A DNA stretch of 64,000 nucleotides from Faecalimonas sp. (GTDB taxonomy: Bacteria > Bacillota > Clostridia > Lachnospirales > Lachnospiraceae), in NCBI GenBank assembly GCA_045649885.1, contig JAZRQP010000010.1:4263-68262 (forward strand). Direction: 5' to 3'. The notes below the pieces were generated by a model. It searched no databases, was not told the origin of the DNA, and saw nothing but the letters and a program-made list of their open reading frames with translations. A program made the position numbers and the translations under genes. Shown in pieces: positions 4,137-64,000 of this stretch. How positions within the stretch are numbered: the first letter of the stretch is position 1; each line of letters opens with the position of its first letter.

Positions 4137-4183
4137 AACCTCACCTGATTTTCTTCAGTCTCTTGATTATAACAGATTATGTT

Positions 4184-4381
4184 CTATTTTTCAACTCTCA
4201 TATCTCGGCGCTTCTTTGTGACTAATCCTCCAATTTTCCCAGTCTCTTTAGACGTCAGAGAACGCCACCCTTCCTTTAACACTTTATCTAAAAGTCCAAG
4301 CTCCTCTGCCACTTCATATTTCATCTTTTCTTCTTCCGTAAGCTCTGACATGCGAATTTCTTTTTGTTTTTTCTTAGACAT
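4184..4381 (-). CDS. Small acid-soluble spore protein (alpha/beta-type, SspF-like)
   Basis: MKYEVAEELGLLDKV...GWRSLTSKETGKIGGLV motif. Confidence 0.85.
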   Translation of the reverse strand: MSKKKQKEIRMSELTEEEKMKYEVAEELGLLDKVLKEGWRSLTSKETGKIGGLVTKKRRDMRVEK

Positions 4382-4441: not shown

Positions 4442-7400
4442 TTAGCAACTGATTTCTTCATGTAAAGCAAATGAGTAAATCACCTTTTCCTTCACTGGTT
4501 TTCCTGTCAACTTATGAAGCGCCTCTGCATAATAGTCAAGCTGTGTATGATAGCGCTCTACCAGCTCTGAGGCTTCTCGCACTCTATCCGTCTTATAGTC
4601 AAGCACTACCAGTTGTCCGTCCTCTTCAAAGTAGACATCCACAATTCCCTGCACAAGCACACATTGCGCTTCATCCGCATCTGTGTATATTCGATTGGCA
4701 TCAAAACTCATGACAAATGGTTGTTCCGCGTGGTAGGTACCTCTCCGGCTGGCTGCTTGCACACGTTTTCCAATAGATGAACGAAGGAAAGTCTGTATAT
4801 CGCAGATATCAATGCACGCTGCCATTTCCTCTGATAGAAATCCTTCTGAAACAAATTTCTCAACGGTGACTAAAAGGCTGTCATCTTCATAATCCTTTGA
4901 AAAATCCAAAAGTTCAAGCAACTTATGGTAGGCCGTACCTCTTGATGCACCCGTAAGTTCCGTCTCTTCTTGCAGGAATTTTGGCAGTAGCGGAATCACG
5001 TCTTCCTCTTTGAAGATTTCCTCACCTTCCTGCTCCATATACATGCGTTTCTTCAACTCGGAAACAGAGAGTTTTTGTTTCACCACCTGACTGTTTTCAA
5101 ATGGATACACATAAGAAAATTGCTCTGCAATCTGCTGTTTCATTTCTGAGGCATAGACCACATCCGTATCCCACTGTTGCAGGACATCCTTTGTAATCTG
5201 ATTGAAAATCTGTTCCTCAGCCTCTTGTTCTGCCAAATCCTCCAGTGTCATTTTTTTGACTACAAATGGAATCTCGCTCCGCATACATCTGTCACGGTAT
5301 AATGCAGGTAAAATCCAATCCATGTATTTTACAGCTTTGGCCAGATGATAATATGGAAGCTGCGTGCCTTCATATCCCTGAAGGACTGCACACTTATCCG
5401 CTTCCTTTGCCAAATCTGCTACGGTGCCTGTCAAAATCAATTTCTCTTTTGCACGCGTCATGGCCACATAAAGGACACGCAATTCCTCTGCAGTTGTCTC
5501 CCTTGCTTCCCTCAGTTGAATCATTTTCTTCAAAAATGTTGTCGTCTTAGTACGTGCAATTGGATCAACGGCATCCACACCGACGCCCAATTCAGAATGC
5601 AATACAAGGCTCTTTTTGGTATCCTGCATGTTGAATTGCTTACCCATTCCTGCCACAAAAACAATCGGGAACTCTAAGCCCTTACTTTTATGGATGGTCA
5701 TCAGACTTACCACATCCGCATTTTCATCCATAAGGTTGGCTTCCCCATAATCAACCGCGTATTTTTTCAACTGCTCCATATAGCGTACGAAATTAAACAA
5801 CCCTTTGTAACTGGTTCCTTCAAAAGCAACTGCCTTCTCCACAAGCATTTCCAAATTGGCCGCTCTTTGTTCTCCGCCAGGAAGTGCTGATACGTAATCA
5901 CGATATCCGGTCTCCTCCAGAATCTGCCACAGGAGCATGTGAATTGCCATATATGGAACACGATTTCTATAATAATTTAACGTGGACAAAAATTGTTCAA
6001 GTCGCTCTTTAATCACTTTATTCTGTCCGTATTTTGCATAATGACAAATACAGTCATACATGGTCTTTTCCTGGTTGTTGCTTCGAATGATTGCAAGCTC
6101 CTCACTGGTAATTCCGGCAAACATAGAAGTCAGAACTGCCGTAAGCGGGATATCCTGTCTTGGATTATCCAGCACCTGTAGATAGTTTAACGCAATCTGT
6201 ATCTCCGGCGTTTCAAAATACCCTTCCTGTGAACATGCATAGGTTGGAATGCCTGCATCTCCCAACACCTTGGAGAAACTTTCCGTCCACCCCTTAGCAC
6301 TTCGGGTTAGAATTACCATATCACCATATCGAACCGGACGGTATTCCCCTGTCTTTTTATCAAAGACCGTATGACCTGCCATCAAACTTTTAATCCGTCT
6401 GGCAATTGCCTCTGCCTCCACCTCAATCCGTTCCTTTGCTTTGCTCTCCGGCACTTCAATCAGTAGAACCTCCGCCTCCTTATCCGGTTTCTCTTCGTAA
6501 TCTGCACCCACATACAAGGCGGCCTTGTCATCATAATCAATTCCACCCAGACGTGGCACCATAATCTGCCGAAATACAAAATTAGTACTGTCTAAGACCT
6601 CTTTCCTGCTACGGAAATTCTTATGCAAATCTATGCGCTGTTTCTCACTGTCCAATGTGCTGTAGGAATTGAATTTCTCCATAAAGAGCTCTGGTCTTGA
6701 CAAGCGAAAACGATAGATGCTTTGTTTTACGTCTCCAACCATAAAGATATTGTAAACGCCATTCGACACACCGGAAACACTGGTTAAAATAGCTTCCTGA
6801 ACATAGTTGCTATCCTGGTATTCATCAATCATGACTTCTGCGAACTTCTGCTGATAACTTGCTGCAACCTCACTTGGAACAAAATTACCATTTTCTTCTC
6901 TCGTCAGTATCTGCAGGGCATACTGTTCCATATCGCTGAAATCAATGAGGTCTTTCTTCCTTTTCTCCTCTGCAAACTGCTCCGCAAAGCGTGCTACCAG
7001 ACCGGTTAACATCTTCATATTACCATGAACGGCCGACATATCCTCTGCCAGATTTTCCAACTCATCATAGAAATAATTTTCCACCAGCTTTTTGATATAT
7101 CCCTTCACTTCATCTCGGATATCTTTCACATGAAGAAGCTTTGCATCATCCACAATGATTCCTCTGTTGGAGCCCAATTTCTGCCATTCGATATGGGTGA
7201 TTGCCCGTTTCATTTCTGTAAAGCCTTTCGCTGCACATAGGAGTTCTATCTGTTCCAAATCAGATTGCAACGTCTTCTCGTATGCAATCGGTCCCTGTTC
7301 TTCTCTGCAAACTTTGATTCCATGCTCTAAGAGACTCTTCATGTACTGCAGGTTTTCCCGCACCTCGTCCAGAAATTCCTGCACATATGCTTTTGCTTCC

Positions 7401-8020: not shown

Positions 8021-11000
8021 TTCGCAGCCTCCTCCCGCATGATTTCCATGGCTTCTTCCGCCTTCAGCTTTTCTAATTCCCGATATTCGTATCCGTCTAT
8101 TTTCTCGTCAAAGCCACAAATTGCCTGATAAGGACAATATTTGCAAGCGGACTGCTGGTCTAATTTGTATGGCGAAACACTTGCTTCTCCTTGCAATATC
8201 TGTTTTCCAACCTTTCGCACCTGGCGATTGGCAAACTCGGAAATAATCGCAAACTCTTCCTCAGATAAAACCTTAGAAGCCTTCGCCAGGGTACCGTTTT
8301 TATTCTTCGATACCGGAATCACCTGTGATGACTGGTCAATTTCCCTGTCTAAATGTCCAATAACCTCCGGTGAATTCAGCACAATCCCATCTGGGCGCAG
8401 TTCCTTCAAGAAGGCATCCTCTAACACCTCTTCATCCTGCACTTTTTCCACAATCGGGTCTTGCACACGATAATAGAATAATCCCGCAGGAATAATCTGC
8501 TTTCCTTTACTCTCCTGCTGACTCATTTCCATGGCAGCATTCATATATACAACTAACTGCATTTGCAGTCCATAGCAAAGTTCACCTAAATCAAAGACCT
8601 GCTTTCCCGTCTTATAGTCCACAATCTTGACGTAAATGTGGTCCTCATCTTCATAGGTATCAATGCGGTCTATTTTCCCGCGAAGCACCATTTTACCCAG
8701 TTCGTCTAACTGGATATGGGAAGTGGAAAGTTCTCGCACACCGCCAAAGGCAACCTCATATCCTTTCGGTTTGAAATCTCCTTTTCCCAGTTGTTTTTTT
8801 AACGCCCATATGGTGCGACGCAGCATCCGTTTCAGTCTTGTAATGATATACTCATTTCTTGCCGAGCTATACAGAATGGAATTGCTGTAATCTACAATAC
8901 TCTCATCCACACTTTCTTGAATCAGCTCTTCCTGTCTATCCTCCGGTATATCGCCCCAGCCATACCCCTCCTGCTCGATTTTCTTCGAAAATCGCTCTAG
9001 TGAGCTATGACAAAGATTTCCCAAATCTACGGCCTGGAATTGATATTCCTCCCGTTCCTTCAGGTGGAGACCATATGTAAGGAAATGGGCGTATGCACAG
9101 GCAGAGAATTTCTCCAGTCTGGTCACACTATTTACCAGAACATCACCGTATAGTTTCTTGGCTGTCTCTCTTGTCAGCAAGTTCTCCGGTTTTTGATAAA
9201 ATGCGGCTTCTACAATCTGCTCTATCTTCCTGCTCCACTCCGGATGCCCCTTATACCATGTATAAAGCTCCTGCCATTCCTTCGAAAGACCGGCATGCTT
9301 GTTCTGCAACCCAATCACCAAGGAATCTAAACCGCTTTCCATGGTAAGCTCCTTATCTAATAGTCCGGAAGGAACATGGCCAATTTTCATATTCGGGAAC
9401 ATATTTGTCAGCTCCGAAATCAAATAGGATGGGCGGATTGCTTTTCCATCCACAGAGGTTTTGCTGTATGTCAAATAAACCTGATTCGTTGGCTTTGTCA
9501 GAAGCAGGTATAAATAGAATTTTTGAATATATGTTTTTTCTTTTGCTGTCGGTGCTAATGTTACACCCAAATTTAAAATTTTGTCTCTGTCATATTCCGT
9601 TAAAAGTCCGCCGTTTTGCACACTTCCCGGAATATAAATATCATTGGTACCTACAAGAAAGACTACCTTTACATCCTTAATTCGGCTGCGCTGCACATCA
9701 CCCACGATGACCTGGTCAATACTAGGAGGAATGATGCCGACCTTCGCCTGCTCTAATCCGGCGTCTAAAAGTTCGCAATACTCTTGTATGGAAATATATT
9801 CATCTCCCAAAAGCTCCACAAACTGGTCCAGCACCTCGATTACAATACGGTAAACCTGTGCATATTCCTTTTCCAATGCAAGCTCACCCATTTTCTCAAA
9901 CATCAATTGATATCCTTTGACACGTTGCTGCAGCTCTGCTCTTCGGAAGAACTTTTCTAGTGCCTTAGTAACATCCAGAACCGTCTTCTTTCTGCTTTTT
10001 AGTACAGATATCACCTCTTCCAGACTATCTACAAATTCCTTTCGTATACGGTTGATTTCAGAAAGCTGACTCTCATCCATCCCGTTACTTCTGCGAATCC
10101 AAGGCTCTTGCCATTTCTTATATGTCTTAACGCCCATGGCTATGACATAGTTTTCCAGCCTGTCTATGTCTTCTCTTTCCATACCTGAAAGACCGGTACG
10201 CAAATATCGAAATACACTTTCATAAGTAAAATTCTTCTCTGCCATTGCAAGCAGACTGCGGATAAATTCCACACAGGAATTCAGTAATATGCTTCTTTTA
10301 TCATCCATGAAAACCGGGAGTCCGTACTTCGCAAACACCTGCTCGATTTGGTTCGAATATGCAGCCAAATCATTTGTGATAATCGCAAAATCATTATAAC
10401 GATACTGCTTGGTACGAACCATGTGGCGAATCCTTTGTGCCACAAAATCGACTTCTTCCCTCGGACTTTTCCCGCACCAAATCTGAATGCTGTCCTGATC
10501 CTTCTCATAATGTTCCTTCGAATAACGGAAGAGATGGGATTCCAAAAATCCCAACGCCTCATTGTCACGGAATCGATAAACCGGCTCCTGATACATACAA
10601 ACAGGCTCGTCAATAGAAGTCCCACTTTCTTTTGCAATTGCCATAAGACCGGTAACCATTTTTTTACTAAGAGCAAATAATTGGTATGGATGTTGATACA
10701 CATATGGGTTTTCCCGTTTATCCATAGTGACTGTAACCATCACCTTTTCACTCACCTTCAATAGTTCTCGAAGCAATTTATTCTGAACCGGTGTAAAGCC
10801 GGTAAATCCATCCAAAACAATGATACTTTTCTTTAGCAGCTTTGATTTTATTACAACCGAAGCAAGCACATCCAGAATTTCTTCCACTGTGATGTACTTC
10901 TCCTTTAAATATTCTACAAATCCCTCGTAGACAAGTTGAATGTCTCGAAGCTTGTAATACATGTTCGGATTACTCTCTGCCTTTTGTAACAATTCCTCCA

Positions 11001-11415
11001 GGCTATCCGGGGTGATATCGTACTGTGTGAACTCGGATATAATGGATTTGATTTCACTGATATATCCGATCTTTTTCAAATTGCTGCCAAGAAGCTTTAA
11101 CTGCTCCTCTTTATCCCCCGCAATCTTTCGAATGACAAAGTTTTTCCCCACATCATCCAGCACAATCCGCCTGTTATTACCAACCTCTTCAAACACGCGG
11201 TTTGCCAAGCGATTGAAGCTTAGCACTTCCACATTCAGAGTTCCCTTATTGGGACTTGCCAAACACAAATCCTTCTGTGTTTGCATGGTAAACTGCTCCG
11301 GCACAAGAACAATGTAATTTTTGTCCGGATTTTTCAATGATTCAGTTGTCACCCATTGATACAAATAATGGGACTTTCCTGCACCGGAAGGTCCCATAAT
11401 AAATTGCAAACTCAT
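8011..11415 (-). CDS. addB: ATP-dependent helicase/nuclease subunit B
   Basis: GPSGAGKS, VPEQFT, LDGFTGFTPVQ, SVTRLEKFSAC, GKIDRID...VDYKTG, CKYCPYQAIC Fe-S cysteines; overlaps addA. Confidence 0.97.
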   Translation of the reverse strand: MSLQFIMGPSGAGKSHYLYQWVTTESLKNPDKNYIVLVPEQFTMQTQKDLCLASPNKGTLNVEVLSFNRLANRVFEEVGNNRRIVLDDVGKNFVIRKIAGDKEEQLKLLGSNLKKIGYISEIKSIISEFTQYDITPDSLEELLQKAESNPNMYYKLRDIQLVYEGFVEYLKEKYITVEEILDVLASVVIKSKLLKKSIIVLDGFTGFTPVQNKLLRELLKVSEKVMVTVTMDKRENPYVYQHPYQLFALSKKMVTGLMAIAKESGTSIDEPVCMYQEPVYRFRDNEALGFLESHLFRYSKEHYEKDQDSIQIWCGKSPREEVDFVAQRIRHMVRTKQYRYNDFAIITNDLAAYSNQIEQVFAKYGLPVFMDDKRSILLNSCVEFIRSLLAMAEKNFTYESVFRYLRTGLSGMEREDIDRLENYVIAMGVKTYKKWQEPWIRRSNGMDESQLSEINRIRKEFVDSLEEVISVLKSRKKTVLDVTKALEKFFRRAELQQRVKGYQLMFEKMGELALEKEYAQVYRIVIEVLDQFVELLGDEYISIQEYCELLDAGLEQAKVGIIPPSIDQVIVGDVQRSRIKDVKVVFLVGTNDIYIPGSVQNGGLLTEYDRDKILNLGVTLAPTAKEKTYIQKFYLYLLLTKPTNQVYLTYSKTSVDGKAIRPSYLISELTNMFPNMKIGHVPSGLLDKELTMESGLDSLVIGLQNKHAGLSKEWQELYTWYKGHPEWSRKIEQIVEAAFYQKPENLLTRETAKKLYGDVLVNSVTRLEKFSACAYAHFLTYGLHLKEREEYQFQAVDLGNLCHSSLERFSKKIEQEGYGWGDIPEDRQEELIQESVDESIVDYSNSILYSSARNEYIITRLKRMLRRTIWALKKQLGKGDFKPKGYEVAFGGVRELSTSHIQLDELGKMVLRGKIDRIDTYEDEDHIYVKIVDYKTGKQVFDLGELCYGLQMQLVVYMNAAMEMSQQESKGKQIIPAGLFYYRVQDPIVEKVQDEEVLEDAFLKELRPDGIVLNSPEVIGHLDREIDQSSQVIPVSKNKNGTLAKASKVLSEEEFAIISEFANRQVRKVGKQILQGEASVSPYKLDQQSACKYCPYQAICGFDEKIDGYEYRELEKLKAEEAMEIMREEAAKWE

Positions 11416-11458
11416 TCGTTTCCTCCTAAATGTACTTATGCAAATCTATAATATTCTA

Positions 11459-12022
11459 CTATAATTTGATAATCATCGCTGGAATCGGTGGATTTGATGG
11501 ACGATTAAAGTAGGATGTTAAAATAACAAGATACTGCTTTGTATCCAGTTTCTTAAGCTCCCCTAATATTCCATCCCGTTCTTCAAATCCACTGTCGCCG
11601 CCGCTATAGATACAAAGGCTCATCATGCCGCCTTTTTTCAACAGTTTTAACCCTTCATGAATTGCTGCGATACTAGTGTCTTTATGGGTTGCTAATGCAT
11701 GATCTCCTCCCGGCAAATAACCAAAATTGAAAACAATGCAACTCACATTTTCCGCTTCAACGTATTGCCCCATATTGGTATGACTGTCCTTTATCACTTC
11801 AACTCGGTCTGACAAAGCAAACTTTTCAAGACGATTTCTAGTATTCTCAATTGCCTGCTCCTGAATATCAAAGGCAAATACCTTTCCAGTTTCTCCTACA
11901 AGTTCACATAAAAGCTGTGTATCGTTTCCATTTCCTGCAGTTGCATCAATACATATATCTCCCTGTTTTACATGCTCACGGATAAAATGATGACACCACT
12001 CCGTAATCTGATAATTTTTCAT
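11459..12022 (-). CDS. Class I SAM-dependent methyltransferase (YtqB/MnmM-like)
   Basis: IDATAGNGNDT, FAFDIQEQAI, FNFGYLPGGD. Confidence 0.85.
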   Translation of the reverse strand: MKNYQITEWCHHFIREHVKQGDICIDATAGNGNDTQLLCELVGETGKVFAFDIQEQAIENTRNRLEKFALSDRVEVIKDSHTNMGQYVEAENVSCIVFNFGYLPGGDHALATHKDTSIAAIHEGLKLLKKGGMMSLCIYSGGDSGFEERDGILGELKKLDTKQYLVILTSYFNRPSNPPIPAMIIKL

Positions 12023-17186: not shown

Positions 17187-17633
17187 ATGGAGTACAGAAC
17201 AATTACAAAAAGCGTCTTGCACCAACTTGGAATTGGAAAAACTTACAGCGGATACGATTACATTCTTCGTTCCATTGAACTAATTTTGCAAAATGAAGAT
17301 GTCCTGACAAATGTCACAAAAATTCTATATATTGATATAGCAAAGGAGTATCAGACTTCACAAACTTGTGTAGAAAGAAACATCCGTAAAGTAATTGAAG
17401 TCATCTGGAAGCATGCCGATGAAAACAGCATTCAGCTTCAAAAAATCTTTGGTAAAAAATTCCTATCACTAAAACCTTCCAACAAGGAATTTTTAGAACT
17501 GCTATATGAATATATTAAATTACAGGACACTTTGCAAAAAGCCCTTATCTCCAATCCGTTTATTTGTCCAATTTCCAACAAAGCTTGTTGCGCCTTCGAT
17601 GAAATTCTAAAAAAATTTATACAGCTTTATTAA
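17187..17633 (+). CDS. Stand-alone Spo0A C-terminal (DNA-binding) domain protein; start reassigned to MEYRT
   Basis: LHQLGIGKTYSGYDYI...TKILYIDIAKEYQTSQTCVERNIRKVIEVIW is the Spo0A_C pattern; no receiver domain. Confidence 0.85.
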   Translation: MEYRTITKSVLHQLGIGKTYSGYDYILRSIELILQNEDVLTNVTKILYIDIAKEYQTSQTCVERNIRKVIEVIWKHADENSIQLQKIFGKKFLSLKPSNKEFLELLYEYIKLQDTLQKALISNPFICPISNKACCAFDEILKKFIQLY

Positions 17634-57805: not shown

Positions 57806-58639
57806 CTAGATTTCTATCTCGCCTTCGAATGAAATTGCTGCGGGACCGGTCATATAAACCTTATTCGCTTCTCTATCCCACTCAATTTGTAAATCTCCGC
57901 CAAGTAATTTAACAGTCACTTTATCTTCGGTTAATCCATTCAAGATACTTGCAACCGCTACTGCACATGCTCCGGTACCACAAGCAAGTGTTTCCCCTGA
58001 GCCGCGCTCCCACACACGCATTTCAACTGTATGTCTGTCAATCACTCTTGCAAATTCTGTATTGATACGTTTTGGAAAACGTTCATGATTCTCAAACTTC
58101 GGCCCAATTTTCTCGATTTCTAATCCCTGTACATCATCAATATACACCACTGTATGAGGATTTCCCATAGAAACACCAGTCATACGATACTCTTTCCCAT
58201 CTACAAGAATCGGTGCATTAATTACAGAGTCACCCTCTGCTACAATCGGAATGTTGGCAGGTACTAATTCCGGACTGCCCATATCCACTTTGACAAGTTT
58301 TACTTTCCCATTTTCCACAGTAAAATCCAAATACTTAATACCACCCAATGTTTCCACTGAAATGCTGGTCTTATCAGTCAATCCATAGTCATAAACGTAT
58401 TTTCCTACACACCGAATCCCGTTTCCGCACATTTCTCCGCGAGAACCGTCTGCGTTATACATTTCCATTTCAAAATCTGCTACTTTGGATGGGTTAATCA
58501 TAATCAAACCGTCTGAACCAACACCAAAGTTTCGGTTGCTCACTTTGATCGCTACTTCACTTGGATTGTCTATTTTCTCTTGGAAACAGTTTACATACAC
58601 ATAATCATTTCCAAGCCCTTGCATCTTTGTAAATTTCAT
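57806..58639 (-). CDS. dapF: Diaminopimelate epimerase
   Basis: [36 protein letters not shown]. Confidence 0.97.
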
Positions 58640-58665
58640 CTTTCTGTCCTCCCTAAACAACTTCT

Positions 58666-58701: not shown

Positions 58702-59280
58702 TTAATCTTTTATCTGCCTTCCTGTCACATCCAAATGATAATTCTCTTTATAGATTAATTCTGAAATTGGAACAATCTCGTATCCTTGTGCTTTCAGGCC
58801 TTCAATTACCTTTGGAAGTGCCTCTGCCGTATATTTTGCACCGTTGTGCATAAGTATAATGGAACCATTCTTTAAATTTTTATGTTCGGTAACTGTTTTG
58901 ATAATATTGTCTACTCCGTAGTCCTTCCAATCTAAGCTGTCTACGTCCCATTGTATGGTATAATATCCGCAAGAGGTTGCATTTTTAATCACTTCATTGT
59001 CATAATCTCCGTATGGTGGACGGAATAAATCCATTTCTACGCCGGTTATCTCTTTAACCTTTTCATGTACCTTCAGAAGCTCCTGCTGACACTCGCTATC
59101 TGGTAGCTGACTCATATTTTTATGATTTTCACTGTGATTTGCCAAGTCATGCCCTGCTTCTTTGATTTTCTTTACATCCTCTGGGAAATTCTCTACCCAA
59201 CCACCGGTCATAAAGAATGTAACATGAATGTTATATTCTTTTAAAATGTCAAGAATTTGCTGTGTATCTTCATTCCCCCA
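58702..59280 (-). pseudogene. 3' part of a PdaB-like polysaccharide deacetylase (CE4), split just after the motif-1 aspartate by a serine-recombinase element
   Basis: The in-frame upstream extension reads WGNEDTQQILDILKEYNIHVTFFMTGGWVE, then ANHSENH, FRPPYG, WDVDSLDW, LMHN; the expected N-terminus and (S/T)FD(A/C)A are missing. Confidence 0.85.
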
Positions 59281-59298
59281 CGGTAATGGTCAGTGGGG
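59276..59298. repeat. Probable att junction of the serine-recombinase element
   Basis: IR CCCCAC-GGTAATGGTCA-GTGGGG centred where deacetylase homology stops, 4 nt from the recombinase stop codon. Confidence 0.6.
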
Positions 59299-59302
59299 CT
59301 AC

Positions 59303-60940
59303 TTATCCCACTAATTTCATCAGATTTTCGTACTCGTTGGAGAAATTATAACGGATTTTGATACGCTTGTTCTCAAAGATTTGAATCTCATCTATCATCT
59401 CTACGACAATCTCTCTTGTGAGTTCTGTAATCTCTTTGTGTTCAAGTAAATGCTGAACCCATGGTAACTCCAGTACATCAGACTGTTTGTTCTTCTGAAC
59501 CTTTTTCTCCAACTCACACAGTTTCCGATTCAACTCATCCTCTTCCCTTGTATATGATTCTCTATATTCGATGTACTCTTCGTTTGAGAGATTACCTTCT
59601 GCATATTCCTCAAACACCTTTTTCTTCAGTTTCTTCTTTCGGTCTATTTCTTTCTTTGTCTTCTCCAGGTCCATAAGATACATTTCTGTTGAAGTCATTT
59701 TCTTCTTAGTTTCCTTCTCTGCACGCTCAACTAATTCTTTCAAATGCTGCATTGCAGAAAGCATTTGATTCAAATCATGCAGAACAATCGCCTTCAAAGT
59801 ATCTTCCTTTATGTAATGTGACGTACATCCCTTTGTTCCAATATTCTGATAAGTGCCACACTTGAAGGTAAAGTAATTCTGCCCCTTGGAATCTTTATGC
59901 GAATTCTTACGCATAGCCCGACCACAGTCACCACATTTGAGAAACCCTGCAAAAATGCTCTGATTTTGTTCGAAAGTGATATCTGTTTTTCGCTGCTTTA
60001 ACGCCTTCTGTGTCTTTTCCCATGTGTCCATATCAATGATAGCCGCATGCGTTCCAGGAACCTTAATCCACTCAGATTCATCTAATCGTTCCGGTTTCCC
60101 ATGAATCTCTCTCCACGTAGTTCCCTGCACCATCGTACCGGTATATATCTCATGTTTTAGAATCTTGGTAATTGTGGAATAGGTCCAGTAATACGTAGTA
60201 TCCAGTTTATTGGAATTCGTGTAATTATATCCATTCTGTTTTTTGTACTCAGACGGACAAAGGATTCCTTCCTCGTTCAAAATCTTCGCAATACGAACCT
60301 TTCCATAACCAGACAGGAACATATCAAAGATTCTCCGAACCACTTCTGCCGCATATGGGTCAATCTCCAACCGATGTCTGTCTTTCTCTGACTTTTGATA
60401 TCCATAACATGCAAATGCACCAACAAATTCTCCGCTACGCTGTTTTGCTTTAAACGATGCCTGACATTTCGCTGAAATATCCTGTGCGTAATGCTCGTTA
60501 AACATATTACGAACAGAAAACATCATGTCATAACCACTAGTTAAGGTATCGTATTGGTCAAGAATTGCAATAAAACGAACATTATACTCCTTAAACCTTT
60601 TTTTGATAAGAACTTCTACATCTGTTTGATTTCTTCCGAATCTCGACTGGTCTTTGACGACAATACAATTAATCACTCCGTTTTTTGCATCTTCCAGCAT
60701 TTCTTGAAAACCCGGACGGTCGAAAAGATATCCTGTCTCGCCATCATCCACGTACTCTTTAATAAGTACCATGTCCTCATGGTGTTTAAGAAAATCCAAC
60801 GCCAGCATGCGTTGATTAGATATACTTTCGCTTTCTTTTTTATGCCCTCCATCTTCTACCGATAATCTTAAATAAATTCCAACCTTGAATGTTTTAATTT
60901 TCGCTAACCTTCTATTTCTGCTCACTATTACACCATTCAA
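59303..60940 (-). CDS. Large serine recombinase (resolvase + recombinase + zinc ribbon + coiled coil)
   Basis: GIYLRLS (catalytic Ser), YVDDGETG, RPGFQEML, VKDQSRFGRN, CGDCG...CGTY...C; start codon uncertain (TTG 60940 or GTG 60925). Confidence 0.95.
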   Translation of the reverse strand: MNGVIVSRNRRLAKIKTFKVGIYLRLSVEDGGHKKESESISNQRMLALDFLKHHEDMVLIKEYVDDGETGYLFDRPGFQEMLEDAKNGVINCIVVKDQSRFGRNQTDVEVLIKKRFKEYNVRFIAILDQYDTLTSGYDMMFSVRNMFNEHYAQDISAKCQASFKAKQRSGEFVGAFACYGYQKSEKDRHRLEIDPYAAEVVRRIFDMFLSGYGKVRIAKILNEEGILCPSEYKKQNGYNYTNSNKLDTTYYWTYSTITKILKHEIYTGTMVQGTTWREIHGKPERLDESEWIKVPGTHAAIIDMDTWEKTQKALKQRKTDITFEQNQSIFAGFLKCGDCGRAMRKNSHKDSKGQNYFTFKCGTYQNIGTKGCTSHYIKEDTLKAIVLHDLNQMLSAMQHLKELVERAEKETKKKMTSTEMYLMDLEKTKKEIDRKKKLKKKVFEEYAEGNLSNEEYIEYRESYTREEDELNRKLCELEKKVQKNKQSDVLELPWVQHLLEHKEITELTREIVVEMIDEIQIFENKRIKIRYNFSNEYENLMKLVG

Positions 60941-60990
60941 TTGCTACCGTACTGAAAGTGTACGTCAATACGGTGCGAAAAGCAATTGAT

Positions 60991-61098
60991 TTATTTCCTT
61001 TCTTTTAATTTCGAAAGGATAATTTTATAAATTAATTCTTCGCTCGTAATTTTGCCCAAAAACTCTCTCTCAATCTTATATTCACTTTTAGCAGCCAC
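60991..61098 (-). CDS. Unannotated 35-aa protein directly upstream of the recombinase (candidate directionality factor)
   Basis: GAGGTG RBS 6 nt before GTG; MAAKSEYKIEREFLGKITSEELIYKIILSKLKERK*. Confidence 0.55.
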   Translation of the reverse strand: MAAKSEYKIEREFLGKITSEELIYKIILSKLKERK

Positions 61099-61258
61099 AA
61101 CTTTCACCTCATCTTCCATTACTTGATTTTATGAAAGAGACCTTTGGGTTAACACAAAACATCCCTTCTTATATGTTATGAAAGATTTTTTGCTTTTGAG
61201 TGAAAAATTTTAAAACTTTTTTCAAAAACCACATAACTTTTTATGTTGAGGCGCAAAA

Positions 61259-61338: not shown

Positions 61339-64000
61339 CTATTCACTTATAGGAAACTGCAACTTAATGTTATTGTATCTCATTACATACAATGCAAAAC
61401 ATCTCCAAATCGGATTTCCCATCCTGCTTTCATCGTGATATTTTTTAAAGATGTCAGTTATTAATGAAACAAAGTTTTCTTTATACTTGTCTTCCAACTC
61501 GTTTACTGACCTCAAGCATTCACTCCACTGCAACAAGAATTCGTCCCTCTCTACATCTGTCATATTCTCATATAATGCTGTCAATGTCTTTATGAGTTTG
61601 TCTGTCACAATAATGTTGAACCTACAATCAATCATCTTTCTTATATAATTGATTAGCATTGGGGCTGTTAATCCCATATCACACAAAAAGTCCACAATAC
61701 CCACTGATGATATACCACATTCTTTTATTTGGCTAATAGCCATGATTGGAACTTCCGCACTTACCAAAACAACATCTGTGTTCATCGATATTGCCACCGC
61801 ATCATAGTCGCATACTCCCAGAAAATCTTTCCAATCGAAATCCTTAAATTCCTCGACTTTGATGTCTTTTTCATTGTTCATTGTATCAATTTGTTGGCAA
61901 TATTGTCTGATTCCCGCTGCTTCGCCCATCCATTTTTGTTTTTCCTCTTCTACACTCTCTTGGAAAAACACCTCTCCATTAGCCTTACCCATTGTAGCAA
62001 CACAGTCCTTCTTATACCTTGCAATAATATCCTCCGCTTCACTTAATATTTCTCTTTGTGCAGAGTCCGTAATATAAATATTCTTGTGTTTATATTGCTC
62101 AATTGGAAATCCTAATTTGTATAATGCAACCATTGCTGAAAATGACAACATGAACCTTTCACCTGAGACCTCATTGCAATTTAAAATTTCACGAAAAATA
62201 ACACTTTTGTCCTCTAATAGCACGAGAATAAATTGCAAATAATTAACATTAACAAATTTGTATAACGAAAACAGCGTAACTGTCATGTTGTGCATATCCT
62301 GGTAATGCTCTAACCATTTAAAAGCATCTCCGTCATCTGGAATGTTCGCTTTAAGCACTTCTACCATTTCCTTACGTGATTGTTCATCATCTCCTGCCGG
62401 AAGCAAAATCTGTTTTGCAATGCCTGCTCCTACTATTTTGTTCATGCAAGTTCTAAAATAATAACAATCTAAAGTTAGAATTTCTTTTACGACATAGGTG
62501 GTATCTCCAATTATAATATCCATCCCGACTTCTTTACGAATTAGCCCCATCTGTATGGCACGGTCTTCAGATATGTGCATTGCGCCTTCCCAACTCCACG
62601 CTTCTTCTGGAAGAACATTTTTCTTATAAATACAATATACTATTTTACCTTTGTTTCCCTTGTCTTCTAAAATAACAGACGTACACACATCTACTTTTTT
62701 TACCTCAGGTCCACTTTGGTTTTCATCACCCATATGAATCACCAAATAATTTTGATAAGTATTTATATCCTGCTCTTGTGACTTCAATAGGGCACGCATT
62801 ATTAAATTTATTGCCTCTTCATGTTGACCGTTTTCCTCACATACAACCGCAGACAGCATAAGCATTCTAGAACTATCAATAGATATCGCGGCCTTTAACA
62901 CTTCATCTGAAATAGAGCGCCTGTTTTCTATAGAAAGCCCTATAATAGCATCTATCACACGTTCTTCTTTCGGGTATTCTTCAAAAAGAGTATTAAGTAT
63001 AGACAACGCTTCCAATCTATACCCTTGATACATTAATGCTGTTGCTTTCATTTGCAGAACCTTTTCGTTTGCCTTCCCCAATGCCTCTATTCTACTGATG
63101 ATTTTCATGGCATCTTTGTATCGTTGACATCCTATTAACAATTCGCACGCTTTCTCATCCGAATTCGTTAAAATAGACATTGATTCTTTCGAAGACCACA
63201 CCTCCAAAAATTCGTCCACCACTGAATCTTCAGTTGACATTATTAACATTTCTATCCAATACTCAATGTAGTTTTTATATTTATCCTTGTATCCCAAAAG
63301 CAATTCAGTGCATTCTGTATTACCTTTTTCAATTCTTACAGCCTGTGCATATAGAATAAACAAATTAAAATCTTTGTCAATCAACCATAAGTTCCGTCCT
63401 AACACTTCCAAAATTGCTATTCCCTTGTTTTCTTGACGTAGCAAATAGTTATTCAACAACCAATATTGTCCTGTCGATTTGCATCTTTCTATAATTTCTG
63501 CTTCTGTTGCTTCATTTTTTTCGATTTTTAAAAACAGAAACAATCCTTGAATATCCTCATCATCTTTTAACCATTCCGGTAATTCTGATACAAACGCATC
63601 TGCTTCTGTCGTCGAACAAATAATCGTCGCACGTAACACTGTTACAAAATATTCTTTTTGCACTTTGTGACACATATACAGCACATTTTCTTTTCTACTT
63701 CGCAACTCATGTAAAATACTTGTAGCCAAGTCATCCGCTGTAATGTCCGTTCCCTTAGACAATAATTCATTTATCTTTTTAGTGTTAATCAGTATCTTAT
63801 CAATAAAATTTGCATCTTCACCAAGAAGTTTTTCCATTTCATCTGCGATAAGTATTGGCTCATTATATAAATACAGCGAACATAGACGTTTTATCAACCA
63901 TATTTCAGAAGGATATTTGTCCGTGACTGTAAATTCATAAGTATCAACGACACCATTTTCTTTTAACTTTTTCTCTAGAACAGCACTTCTCTCTTGTTCT
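61339..64000 (-). CDS. Large TPR + GreA/B C-terminal-like + PIN-like protein (5' end beyond the window)
   Basis: The frame stays open from 63897 to the window end (...EQERSAVLEKK...IWLIKRL); TPR helices; LIRKEVGMDIIIGDTTYVVKEI GreA-C-like; FMLSFSAMVALYKLG / DYDAVAIS / VLVSAE PIN-like. Confidence 0.7.
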   Translation of the reverse strand, partial: EQERSAVLEKKLKENGVVDTYEFTVTDKYPSEIWLIKRLCSLYLYNEPILIADEMEKLLGEDANFIDKILINTKKINELLSKGTDITADDLATSILHELRSRKENVLYMCHKVQKEYFVTVLRATIICSTTEADAFVSELPEWLKDDEDIQGLFLFLKIEKNEATEAEIIERCKSTGQYWLLNNYLLRQENKGIAILEVLGRNLWLIDKDFNLFILYAQAVRIEKGNTECTELLLGYKDKYKNYIEYWIEMLIMSTEDSVVDEFLEVWSSKESMSILTNSDEKACELLIGCQRYKDAMKIISRIEALGKANEKVLQMKATALMYQGYRLEALSILNTLFEEYPKEERVIDAIIGLSIENRRSISDEVLKAAISIDSSRMLMLSAVVCEENGQHEEAINLIMRALLKSQEQDINTYQNYLVIHMGDENQSGPEVKKVDVCTSVILEDKGNKGKIVYCIYKKNVLPEEAWSWEGAMHISEDRAIQMGLIRKEVGMDIIIGDTTYVVKEILTLDCYYFRTCMNKIVGAGIAKQILLPAGDDEQSRKEMVEVLKANIPDDGDAFKWLEHYQDMHNMTVTLFSLYKFVNVNYLQFILVLLEDKSVIFREILNCNEVSGERFMLSFSAMVALYKLGFPIEQYKHKNIYITDSAQREILSEAEDIIARYKKDCVATMGKANGEVFFQESVEEEKQKWMGEAAGIRQYCQQIDTMNNEKDIKVEEFKDFDWKDFLGVCDYDAVAISMNTDVVLVSAEVPIMAISQIKECGISSVGIVDFLCDMGLTAPMLINYIRKMIDCRFNIIVTDKLIKTLTALYENMTDVERDEFLLQWSECLRSVNELEDKYKENFVSLITDIFKKYHDESRMGNPIWRCFALYVMRYNNIKLQFPISE

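Follow-up and report, generated by a model that had tools for sequence, protein, structure and literature searches.

A large serine recombinase island splits a PdaB-like deacetylase gene in Faecalimonas sp. and is a candidate sporulation-gene intervening element

The skin element interrupts sigK, both in Bacillus subtilis, where its large serine recombinase (LSR) is SpoIVCA, and in Clostridioides difficile, where skinCd is served by CD1231 and the recombination directionality factor (RDF) CD1234; the halves of the gene are rejoined by site-specific excision (PMC5025042). A second sporulation gene of B. subtilis, spsM, is involved in envelope maturation in the mother cell and is interrupted by SPbeta, whose LSR restores the gene (SprA/SprB; PMC4191935, PMC5499854). 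The gin element of Bacillus cereus ATCC 10987 is of non-phage nature, encodes the LSR GirC together with a 42-aa RDF, GirX, and is excised from gerE in sporulation (PMC5595907). The present report deals with a comparable arrangement in a member of the Lachnospiraceae. In a stretch of 64,000 nucleotides from Faecalimonas sp., referred to here as the window (GenBank assembly GCA_045649885.1, contig JAZRQP010000010.1, positions 4,263 to 68,262; the contig is designated C10 and the host genome G000), a site-specific LSR island splits a PdaB-like gene of sporulation type at a recurrent attachment site, attB, and its precise excision would restore the gene.

The likeness to gin extends to several features. 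Both are non-phage islands of around 29 kb that split a mother-cell sporulation gene, the assignment of the present gene to the mother cell being predicted from its promoter; both have an LSR and a short core with imperfect inverted repeats, and precise excision restores the reading frame in gin and would do so here. Each also carries a tiny partner protein (GirX, 42 aa; a 35-aa open reading frame, ORF, in the window), the two being likened by their size and by the absence of known motifs. The differences lie in the target, which is gerE in one case and a PdaB-like deacetylase gene in the other, in the host, which here belongs to the Clostridia, and in the enzymes, with three recombinases in gin and one LSR of the TndX type in the window. 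Furthermore, sporulation-specific expression and RDF activity have been shown for gin and are putative for the present island. Analogously to skin, an LSR element interrupts a sporulation gene whose halves could be rejoined by site-specific excision, and reduced forms exist in both cases, the relatives of the present island measuring 3.3–5 kb. However, skin is derived from a prophage and nearly fixed in its species, whereas the island is non-phage and rare in its species, where it occurs in 1 of ~93 sequences; no sigmaE-dependent promoter of an RDF or LSR gene was recognised in it, and the sigK of this host is uninterrupted. SPbeta offers the parallel of a strain-variable mobile element in a mother-cell gene for envelope maturation, restored by an LSR, but it is an active phage with an RDF under sigmaE/K control, and neither virion genes nor an RDF promoter were identified in the island. 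A different comparison is provided by Tn5397 and Tn4451, the elements of TndX and TnpX. They share with the island an LSR at the element end, a weak DUF4368 tail and non-phage cargo, and among named recombinases TndX of Tn5397 comes nearest to that of the island (32% identity over 94% of the length). In contrast to these transposons, no mobilisation or conjugation genes were found in the island, which carries a conserved small ORF upstream of the LSR and is strictly site-specific for one conserved motif, instead of using GA-dinucleotide target sites. The kind of element, a sporulation-gene intervening element, is therefore known and the member is new, its defining behaviour being what we infer.

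The split gene occupies the minus strand of the window at 58702-59301, where the translation reads stop-PH-stop-PLPWGNEDTQQILD... (also PLPWGNEDTQQILDILKEYNIHVTFF...) and ends with a stop codon at 58702. Its match to Pfam PF01522 (Polysacc_deac_1; E 4e-33) covers positions 18-123 of the 124 in the profile and, as it begins at position 18, describes a CE4 deacetylase frame that lacks the N-terminus and the start of motif 1. An intact homolog of 252 aa recovered by protein search (P0001), 99% identical to the window frame, continues without interruption across this point (...ALSFDAAWGNEDTQQ; also ...KKVALSFDAAWGNEDTQQ...), which locates the break between FDAA and WGNED. Window 58702-59282 corresponds to codons 61-252 of the 252-codon gene, with 100% identity to residues 61-252 of the intact allele. 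A tblastn search of the whole assembly placed the complementary 5′ half on another contig, C100, at 454-266 (residues 1-63, 98% identity); past this half the frame runs into foreign DNA as ...SFDAAWG/DGYSGYKK and then stops. An earlier note on this DNA had drawn attention to the abrupt start of the deacetylase frame, to inverted repeats at the junction and to an intact LSR abutting the frame, and had predicted a 5′ half ending in ...FDA at the far end of the element. These observations are upheld: the repeats are present, albeit short, the LSR has all its domains, and the predicted half exists on C100, where it ends in ...FDAAWG.

The boundaries of the insertion are defined by an empty site, a contig of the same species (L024) with an uninterrupted deacetylase gene in the order rhaM-like gene, deacetylase gene, dapF (DAP_epimerase) and purC (SAICAR_synt). 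C100 is 99.8% identical to this contig up to position 4185 and the window is 98.4% identical to it from position 4179. The two alignments overlap at L024:4179-4185, and hence both junctions have the 7 bp CGTGGGG in common (Table 1). When the 5′ part from C100 and the 3′ part from the window are joined in silico over this core, a 252-aa ORF identical to P0001 results. The inverted repeats at the window junction pair CCCCAC (59276-59281) with GTGGGG (59293-59298) and AGTGGG (59292-59297) with CCCACT (59307-59312). On a larger scale, the two element ends, GGTGATGGTTACTCGGGCTAC on the left and GGTAATGGTCAGTGGGGCTAC on the right, form when read inward a 14/18 imperfect inverted repeat around the core, as judged by eye. 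An imperfect inverted repeat flanking the core is the usual anatomy of an LSR attP site. A separate observation concerns the 5′ end of the same gene: an ENA contig encodes a 318-aa protein (P0002) in which the deacetylase, from residue 38 onwards, is fused to an N-terminal phage-integrase SAM-like domain (PF13495/PF02899), and which could represent either a different rearrangement or a chimera.

Table 1. Features of the split gene, the element and their neighbours, in window coordinates
Feature	Position	Strand	Evidence
3′ segment of the PdaB-like CE4 deacetylase gene (~codons 63-252 and stop), host DNA right of the crossover	58702..59275	-	PF01522, L024 alignment
7-bp core CGTGGGG (gene strand), common to attR (window) and attL (C100); presumed crossover, codons A60-W61-G62	59276..59282	.	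L024 alignment overlap, junction sequences
Element right end, attP-derived arm GGTAATGGTCAGTGGGGCTAC (+ strand)	59283..59302	.	Junction sequences, inverted repeats
LSR; 545 aa if begun at the TTG at 60940, though the GTG at 60925 (540 aa), preceded by a GGTG ribosome-binding site, is the likelier start	59303..60940	-	Pfam, alignment
Hairpin between the small ORF and the LSR ribosome-binding site	60938..60989	-	Fold of -21.6 kcal/mol, z = -2.95
35-aa ORF (GTG start; 42 aa from ATG at 61119), directly upstream of the LSR	60991..61098	-	ORF list, homologs at related loci
C-terminal part of a 1178-aa TPR-containing cargo protein	61339..64000	-	ORFs, weak TPR matches; gene runs on to C10:69137
dapF, the diaminopimelate epimerase gene of the host, next gene downstream of the deacetylase gene	57806..58660	-	ORF; same order in L024

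The recombinase gene points in the same direction as the split gene, with 20 bp between its end and the crossover. Its product contains Resolvase (PF00239), Recombinase (PF07508) and Zn_ribbon_recom (PF13408) domains, all above their cutoffs, with a weak match to DUF4368, and the catalytic residues Y23/R25/S27 (Y-x-R-x-S) are invariant among its relatives in an alignment (A1); it thus qualifies as a large serine recombinase. The closest relative, 73% identical, is an ortholog located at the same site in a further locus, L028, where the cargo beside the LSR differs from that of the island. A profile built from five LSRs retrieved 80 further loci from species genomes, and the family set analysed here comprises 84 loci. 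At 60 of these, the window included, the LSR gene is directly preceded by an ORF whose peptide shows the motif Y-x-[IV]-E-R-x-[FY]-L...E-L...R-I. The window has the 35-aa ORF in this position; it matched no Pfam, NCBIfam or PHROG family and is the most promising candidate for an accessory protein or a directionality factor. The hairpin that follows it has as its 3′ arm the 14-mer TACGGTAGCAATTG (60951-60938), just upstream of the LSR ribosome-binding site. This 14-mer has one other copy in the genome, an exact reverse complement at C100:209-222, situated 45-60 bp inside the left end of the element. The element of another genus (G036, locus L022) carries a different 16-mer in the same paired places, ~8998-9013 and ~5795-5810, which amounts to covariation. 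On an excised circle, the inverted pair of 14-mers would be expected to bracket the LSR gene together with attP. Beside the other LSRs of the host genome, on C143, C32 and C50, no split sporulation gene was recognised.

The island measures ~29.9 kb along the only consistent path, which is closed through a 141-bp assembly repeat, and its GC content is 35.7% as against 38.1% for the genome. It extends beyond the window, occupying C10 from the junction to the contig end, at C10:93194, and continuing on C100:55-269. The left end (C10:92126-93194) carries an AbiD gene with a 141-bp promoter-leader, a module that is 96.6% identical over 1069 bp to an AbiD module of the host at C100:1350-2505, which lies two genes upstream of attB and is preceded by the same 141-bp promoter-leader. 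This duplication accounts for the break in the assembly, in which C100 has identical 141-bp ends and C10 terminates inside the repeat. The genes of the island encode the LSR, the 35-aa ORF, the 1178-aa TPR protein and a PLD-family nuclease; they further include those for three HTH-TPR regulators, three NUDIX and two GNAT enzymes, HEPN, HD/AraC, HTH-deaminase, DUF2441, HAD and methyltransferase proteins, DpnD/PcfM, a D5_N/DUF5906 primase-helicase, DUF5688 and AbiD. The TPR protein, to which no PADLOC family corresponds, is followed by the nuclease and two small ORFs, and this group of genes may constitute an undescribed defence module. A prophage is ruled out by the lack of virion, packaging and lysis genes in Pfam and PHROG searches, and megablast against phages matched only 2% of 20 kb of the element. 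This copy is likewise ruled out as an integrative and conjugative element (ICE), no conjugation genes being found in the 29.9 kb, although one relative, in G028, is an ICE. Nor was a relaxase gene found in this interval, which sets the island apart from transposons of the Tn5397/Tn4451 type; DpnD/PcfM and the D5_N primase are all that it has in this respect.

The interrupted gene is best described as PdaB-like. The intact protein scores 226.7 bits against the NCBIfam equivalog model TIGR02764 (PdaB), which it matches over all 191 profile positions (1-191), and does not reach the curated cutoff of 237.4 bits; the YlxY, PdaA and PgdA models score far lower. The name PdaB-like is used because PdaB is the best family and its cutoff is not attained. 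The earlier note had assigned the gene to PdaB by eye, and this assignment stands as far as the family is concerned, in preference to vegetative CE4 enzymes, but not at the level of the curated threshold. The best solved structure for the intact protein is 4m1b, and its motif 1, FDAAWG, lacks the second Asp of the TFDDG form. A survey of the family, in which each of 201 genomes represented a different genus, detected an ortholog in 89 of the 137 SpoIVA-positive genera as against only 4 of the 64 SpoIVA-negative ones (Fisher p = 1.6e-16). Among 12 orthologs, 9 have a box of the sigmaE/K -10 type, CATA[CT][AG]NT, at a distance of 32-44 nt before the start codon, compared with a mean of 0.33 and a maximum of 3 of 12 in shuffled sequences. 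The promoter in the host species reads ACATATT-14 nt-CATATACT, which we take to be a good sigmaE-type promoter, judging by the B. subtilis consensus. The split gene is thus predicted, from these upstream sequences, to be a mother-cell gene under a sigmaE/K-type promoter. In B. subtilis, pdaB belongs to the sigmaE regulon and the mutant sporulates at 5% (PMC4703394).

Genes for SpoIVA, Spo0A and a CwlD-like amidase are present in the host genome, as is a SigK-like gene free of interruption. Rescue by an intact CE4 paralog, which the earlier note had named as evidence that would tell against a programmed rearrangement, is ruled out: the only other CE4 genes of the host, on C148 and C117, have the TFDDG form of the motif and match PgdA families best, so that no PdaB-type paralog can substitute. 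Apart from the genuine spo0A gene, on contig C127, the window contains at 17190-17525 (C10:21452-21787) an ORF that matches only the C-terminal DNA-binding part of Spo0A (profile 147-258, 70.8 bits).

The insertion site is recurrent. Among the 93 genera of the survey that have the gene, it is broken at residue 59-61 in five (G000, G022, G028, G036 and G114), and the junctions of all five lie within the TGGGG stretch of the codons for W-G. In G028, G036 and G114 the 3′ half is immediately preceded by a related LSR (37-48% identity), and the junction of G022 bears only a reverse-oriented N-terminal fragment of an LSR. The inserts are diverse: that of G036 is a 5-kb element with an AbiE toxin-antitoxin system, that of G114 (Anaerosacchariphilus polymeriproducens MCWD5) spans 11 kb with two LSRs and sigI-rsgI cargo, and the ICE of G028 carries VirB4-like, CHAP and TopB genes. 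Within the LSR family set, ~34 of the 84 loci abut a fragment of a PdaB-like deacetylase gene. Minimal elements of 3.3 kb occur, one made up of an Rpn-like gene, a small ORF and the LSR (L091), the other of an alanine racemase gene and the LSR (L102). Wherever the 3′ half is complete, it is open (14 of 14) and none has decayed. LSRs of other lineages have cut the same gene elsewhere, near residue 175, in the WDVDSLDW region (L022 at 11066-11999, L029, L067, L090 and L096), and, in G114, near residue 149 (L019-L021), so that the PdaB-like gene has been hit at three separate sites by different LSR lineages.

The family, a large one in gut Clostridia, is not confined to the deacetylase gene. At a further 34 of the 84 loci the LSR is followed within 20-135 bp by a fragment of an Amidase_3 gene that starts exactly at HGGxDxG, the split lying at the GHGG codons; related LSRs with such a fragment directly after them are located at L031-L059, L063, L069, L077, L080, L086 and L095. 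These fragments are of two kinds, one CwlD-like, scoring 162-178 bits on TIGR02883 over profile positions 9-189, and one in which the amidase is combined with a SPOR domain, an architecture that we take to be that of B. subtilis CwlC. Together, the deacetylase and amidase loci place about four fifths of the LSR family in three sporulation-type genes for peptidoglycan enzymes. The members of one near-identical LSR clade come from Blautia, Dorea, Faecalimonas, Thomasclavelia and other genera. Carriers available in culture comprise A. polymeriproducens MCWD5, whose deacetylase gene lies in three pieces, Lachnospiraceae bacterium LCP25S3_G4, in which the LSR precedes the 3′ half as in the window, and Blautia producta DSM 2950, which has a split CwlC-like gene. 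No description of pdaB or cwlD as the target of an LSR element was found in the literature searched.

What purpose the split serves can be viewed in more than one way. The best explanation, to which we assign about an even chance, is that the island is a sporulation-gene intervening element, whose excision, in the mother cell at least, would allow the deacetylase to be produced. The window junction is the attR of a non-phage island that the LSR integrated at codons 60-62, the A-W-G of FDAAWGNED. According to this scheme, the germ line would pass the island on in a silent state; in the terminal mother cell, recombination across CGTGGGG would take the island out and rebuild the gene without a single altered base, possibly with the 35-aa ORF as directionality or accessory factor. 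This explanation is favoured by the very limited choice of targets within the family, by repeated independent insertion into one gene, by the minimal elements and by the uniformly intact gene pieces; by analogy, it is also favoured by what experiments have shown for skin, SPbeta and, above all, gin, which is non-phage and has a 42-aa RDF. Alternatively, and with a probability that falls a little short of even, the island is an ordinary integrative element with no developmental role: a TndX-like LSR would target the conserved FDAAWGNED codons for the sake of a wide host range, the insertion would knock out a dispensable gene, sporadic excision would serve transfer only and the insertions would be young. 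A number of observations lend weight to this alternative or count against programmed excision. The LSR is of the TndX/TnpX type, whose enzymes need no directionality factor for either excision or insertion; its derived near-identical clade spans many genera, as a promiscuous transposon would, one relative is an ICE and the cargo is a typical assembly of defence and accessory genes. A sigmaE/K-type -10 box upstream of the small ORF and LSR was found in 2 of 13 elements of type A that target pdaB (LSR, then the 3′ half of the gene, as in the window) and in 0 of 9 of type B (LSR converging on the 5′ half), and stricter sigmaE, sigmaK and sigmaG patterns are not enriched within the island. The predicted attP junction had no exact 30-mer match in collections of metagenome and viral contigs, where five 20-mer matches proved to be unrelated chance matches. 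In public data, the cluster of intact alleles of the host species has 92 member sequences as against one for the split form. The ortholog is absent from 48 of the 137 SpoIVA-positive genera, a figure that includes the one other species sampled from the same genus, and the gene may for this reason be dispensable; that species, G157, has SpoIVA, and the nearest CE4 match in it reaches 38% identity. Both G036 and G114 have the gene in three pieces, each still open, and two or more excisions would be needed there. The split 3′ halves of sister elements are under strong constraint (omega 0.03-0.06), but the synonymous divergence (dS) in sister pairs is 3-7 times lower for the LSR than for the split gene (0.054 vs 0.36; 0.48 vs 1.47), which indicates that the elements moved between species. 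Purifying selection on the split alleles consequently fails as proof of function: with the dS of the LSR well below that of the host gene, and with different cargo beside the LSR in the L028 relative, shared ancestry of the insertions is unsupported, the constraint is not assignable to the split state and the intact halves may reflect young insertions.

Nevertheless, a mere search for wide host range sits uneasily with targets as narrow as ~68 of 84 loci in PdaB-like, CwlD-like and CwlC-like genes, with three sites in the same 252-codon gene hit by different LSR lineages, with 3.3-kb elements that retain an intact LSR and intact gene halves, and with the lack of a single decayed 3′ half among the 14 complete ones. 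To our knowledge, moreover, all LSR elements of mother-cell sporulation genes that have been put to an experiment (skin, skinCd, SPbeta, vfbin and gin) proved to be excised in sporulation, which also counts against an ordinary element. A quite different possibility, that the split gene is an artefact of assembly or binning, with halves from different strains or a chimeric contig and no truly divided gene in any one cell, is very improbable. The assembly does consist of 153 contigs with 3.8% contamination, C100 begins and ends with the same 141 bp in which C10 also ends, and the identity to L024 is unequal on the two sides (98.4% for the window, 99.8% for C100). Against this, each contig passes its junction and enters element DNA without a break, the left and right ends of the element are imperfect inverted repeats of each other about one 7-bp core, the repeat that broke the assembly is explained by the second AbiD module (96.6% identical) inside the element, and the same architecture recurs in finished or isolate genomes of other genera.

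A broader scheme can be put forward, tentatively and as a rather unlikely extension. The LSR and the 35-aa ORF would constitute a portable ‘mother-cell excision cassette’, whose LSR family, widespread in gut Clostridia, would have specialised on the catalytic-motif codons of the PdaB-like deacetylase, CwlD and the CwlC-like amidase. Cargo of every kind, be it one gene, a defence island or an ICE, could travel with the germ line and be discarded only in the disposable mother cell, and the covarying pair of inverted repeats, one at the left end and one in the LSR leader, would form part of a switch that tells the integrated from the excised form.

The significance of the island depends on the timing of its excision. 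Were this not timed to sporulation, the elements would be mobile agents that repeatedly inactivate cortex genes, with a bearing on the loss of sporulation in gut lineages. If it is timed to sporulation, the principle embodied by skin, SPbeta and gin would extend to a new class of targets, the genes for peptidoglycan enzymes of the spore cortex, as well as to a new recombinase family and to the dominant spore-forming commensals of the gut, across dozens of species. The family would then supply naturally orthogonal pairs of LSRs and att sites with a possible tiny directionality factor, and sporulation-timed excision would explain how defence islands and conjugative elements can reside, at no cost, in genes needed for transmissible spores.

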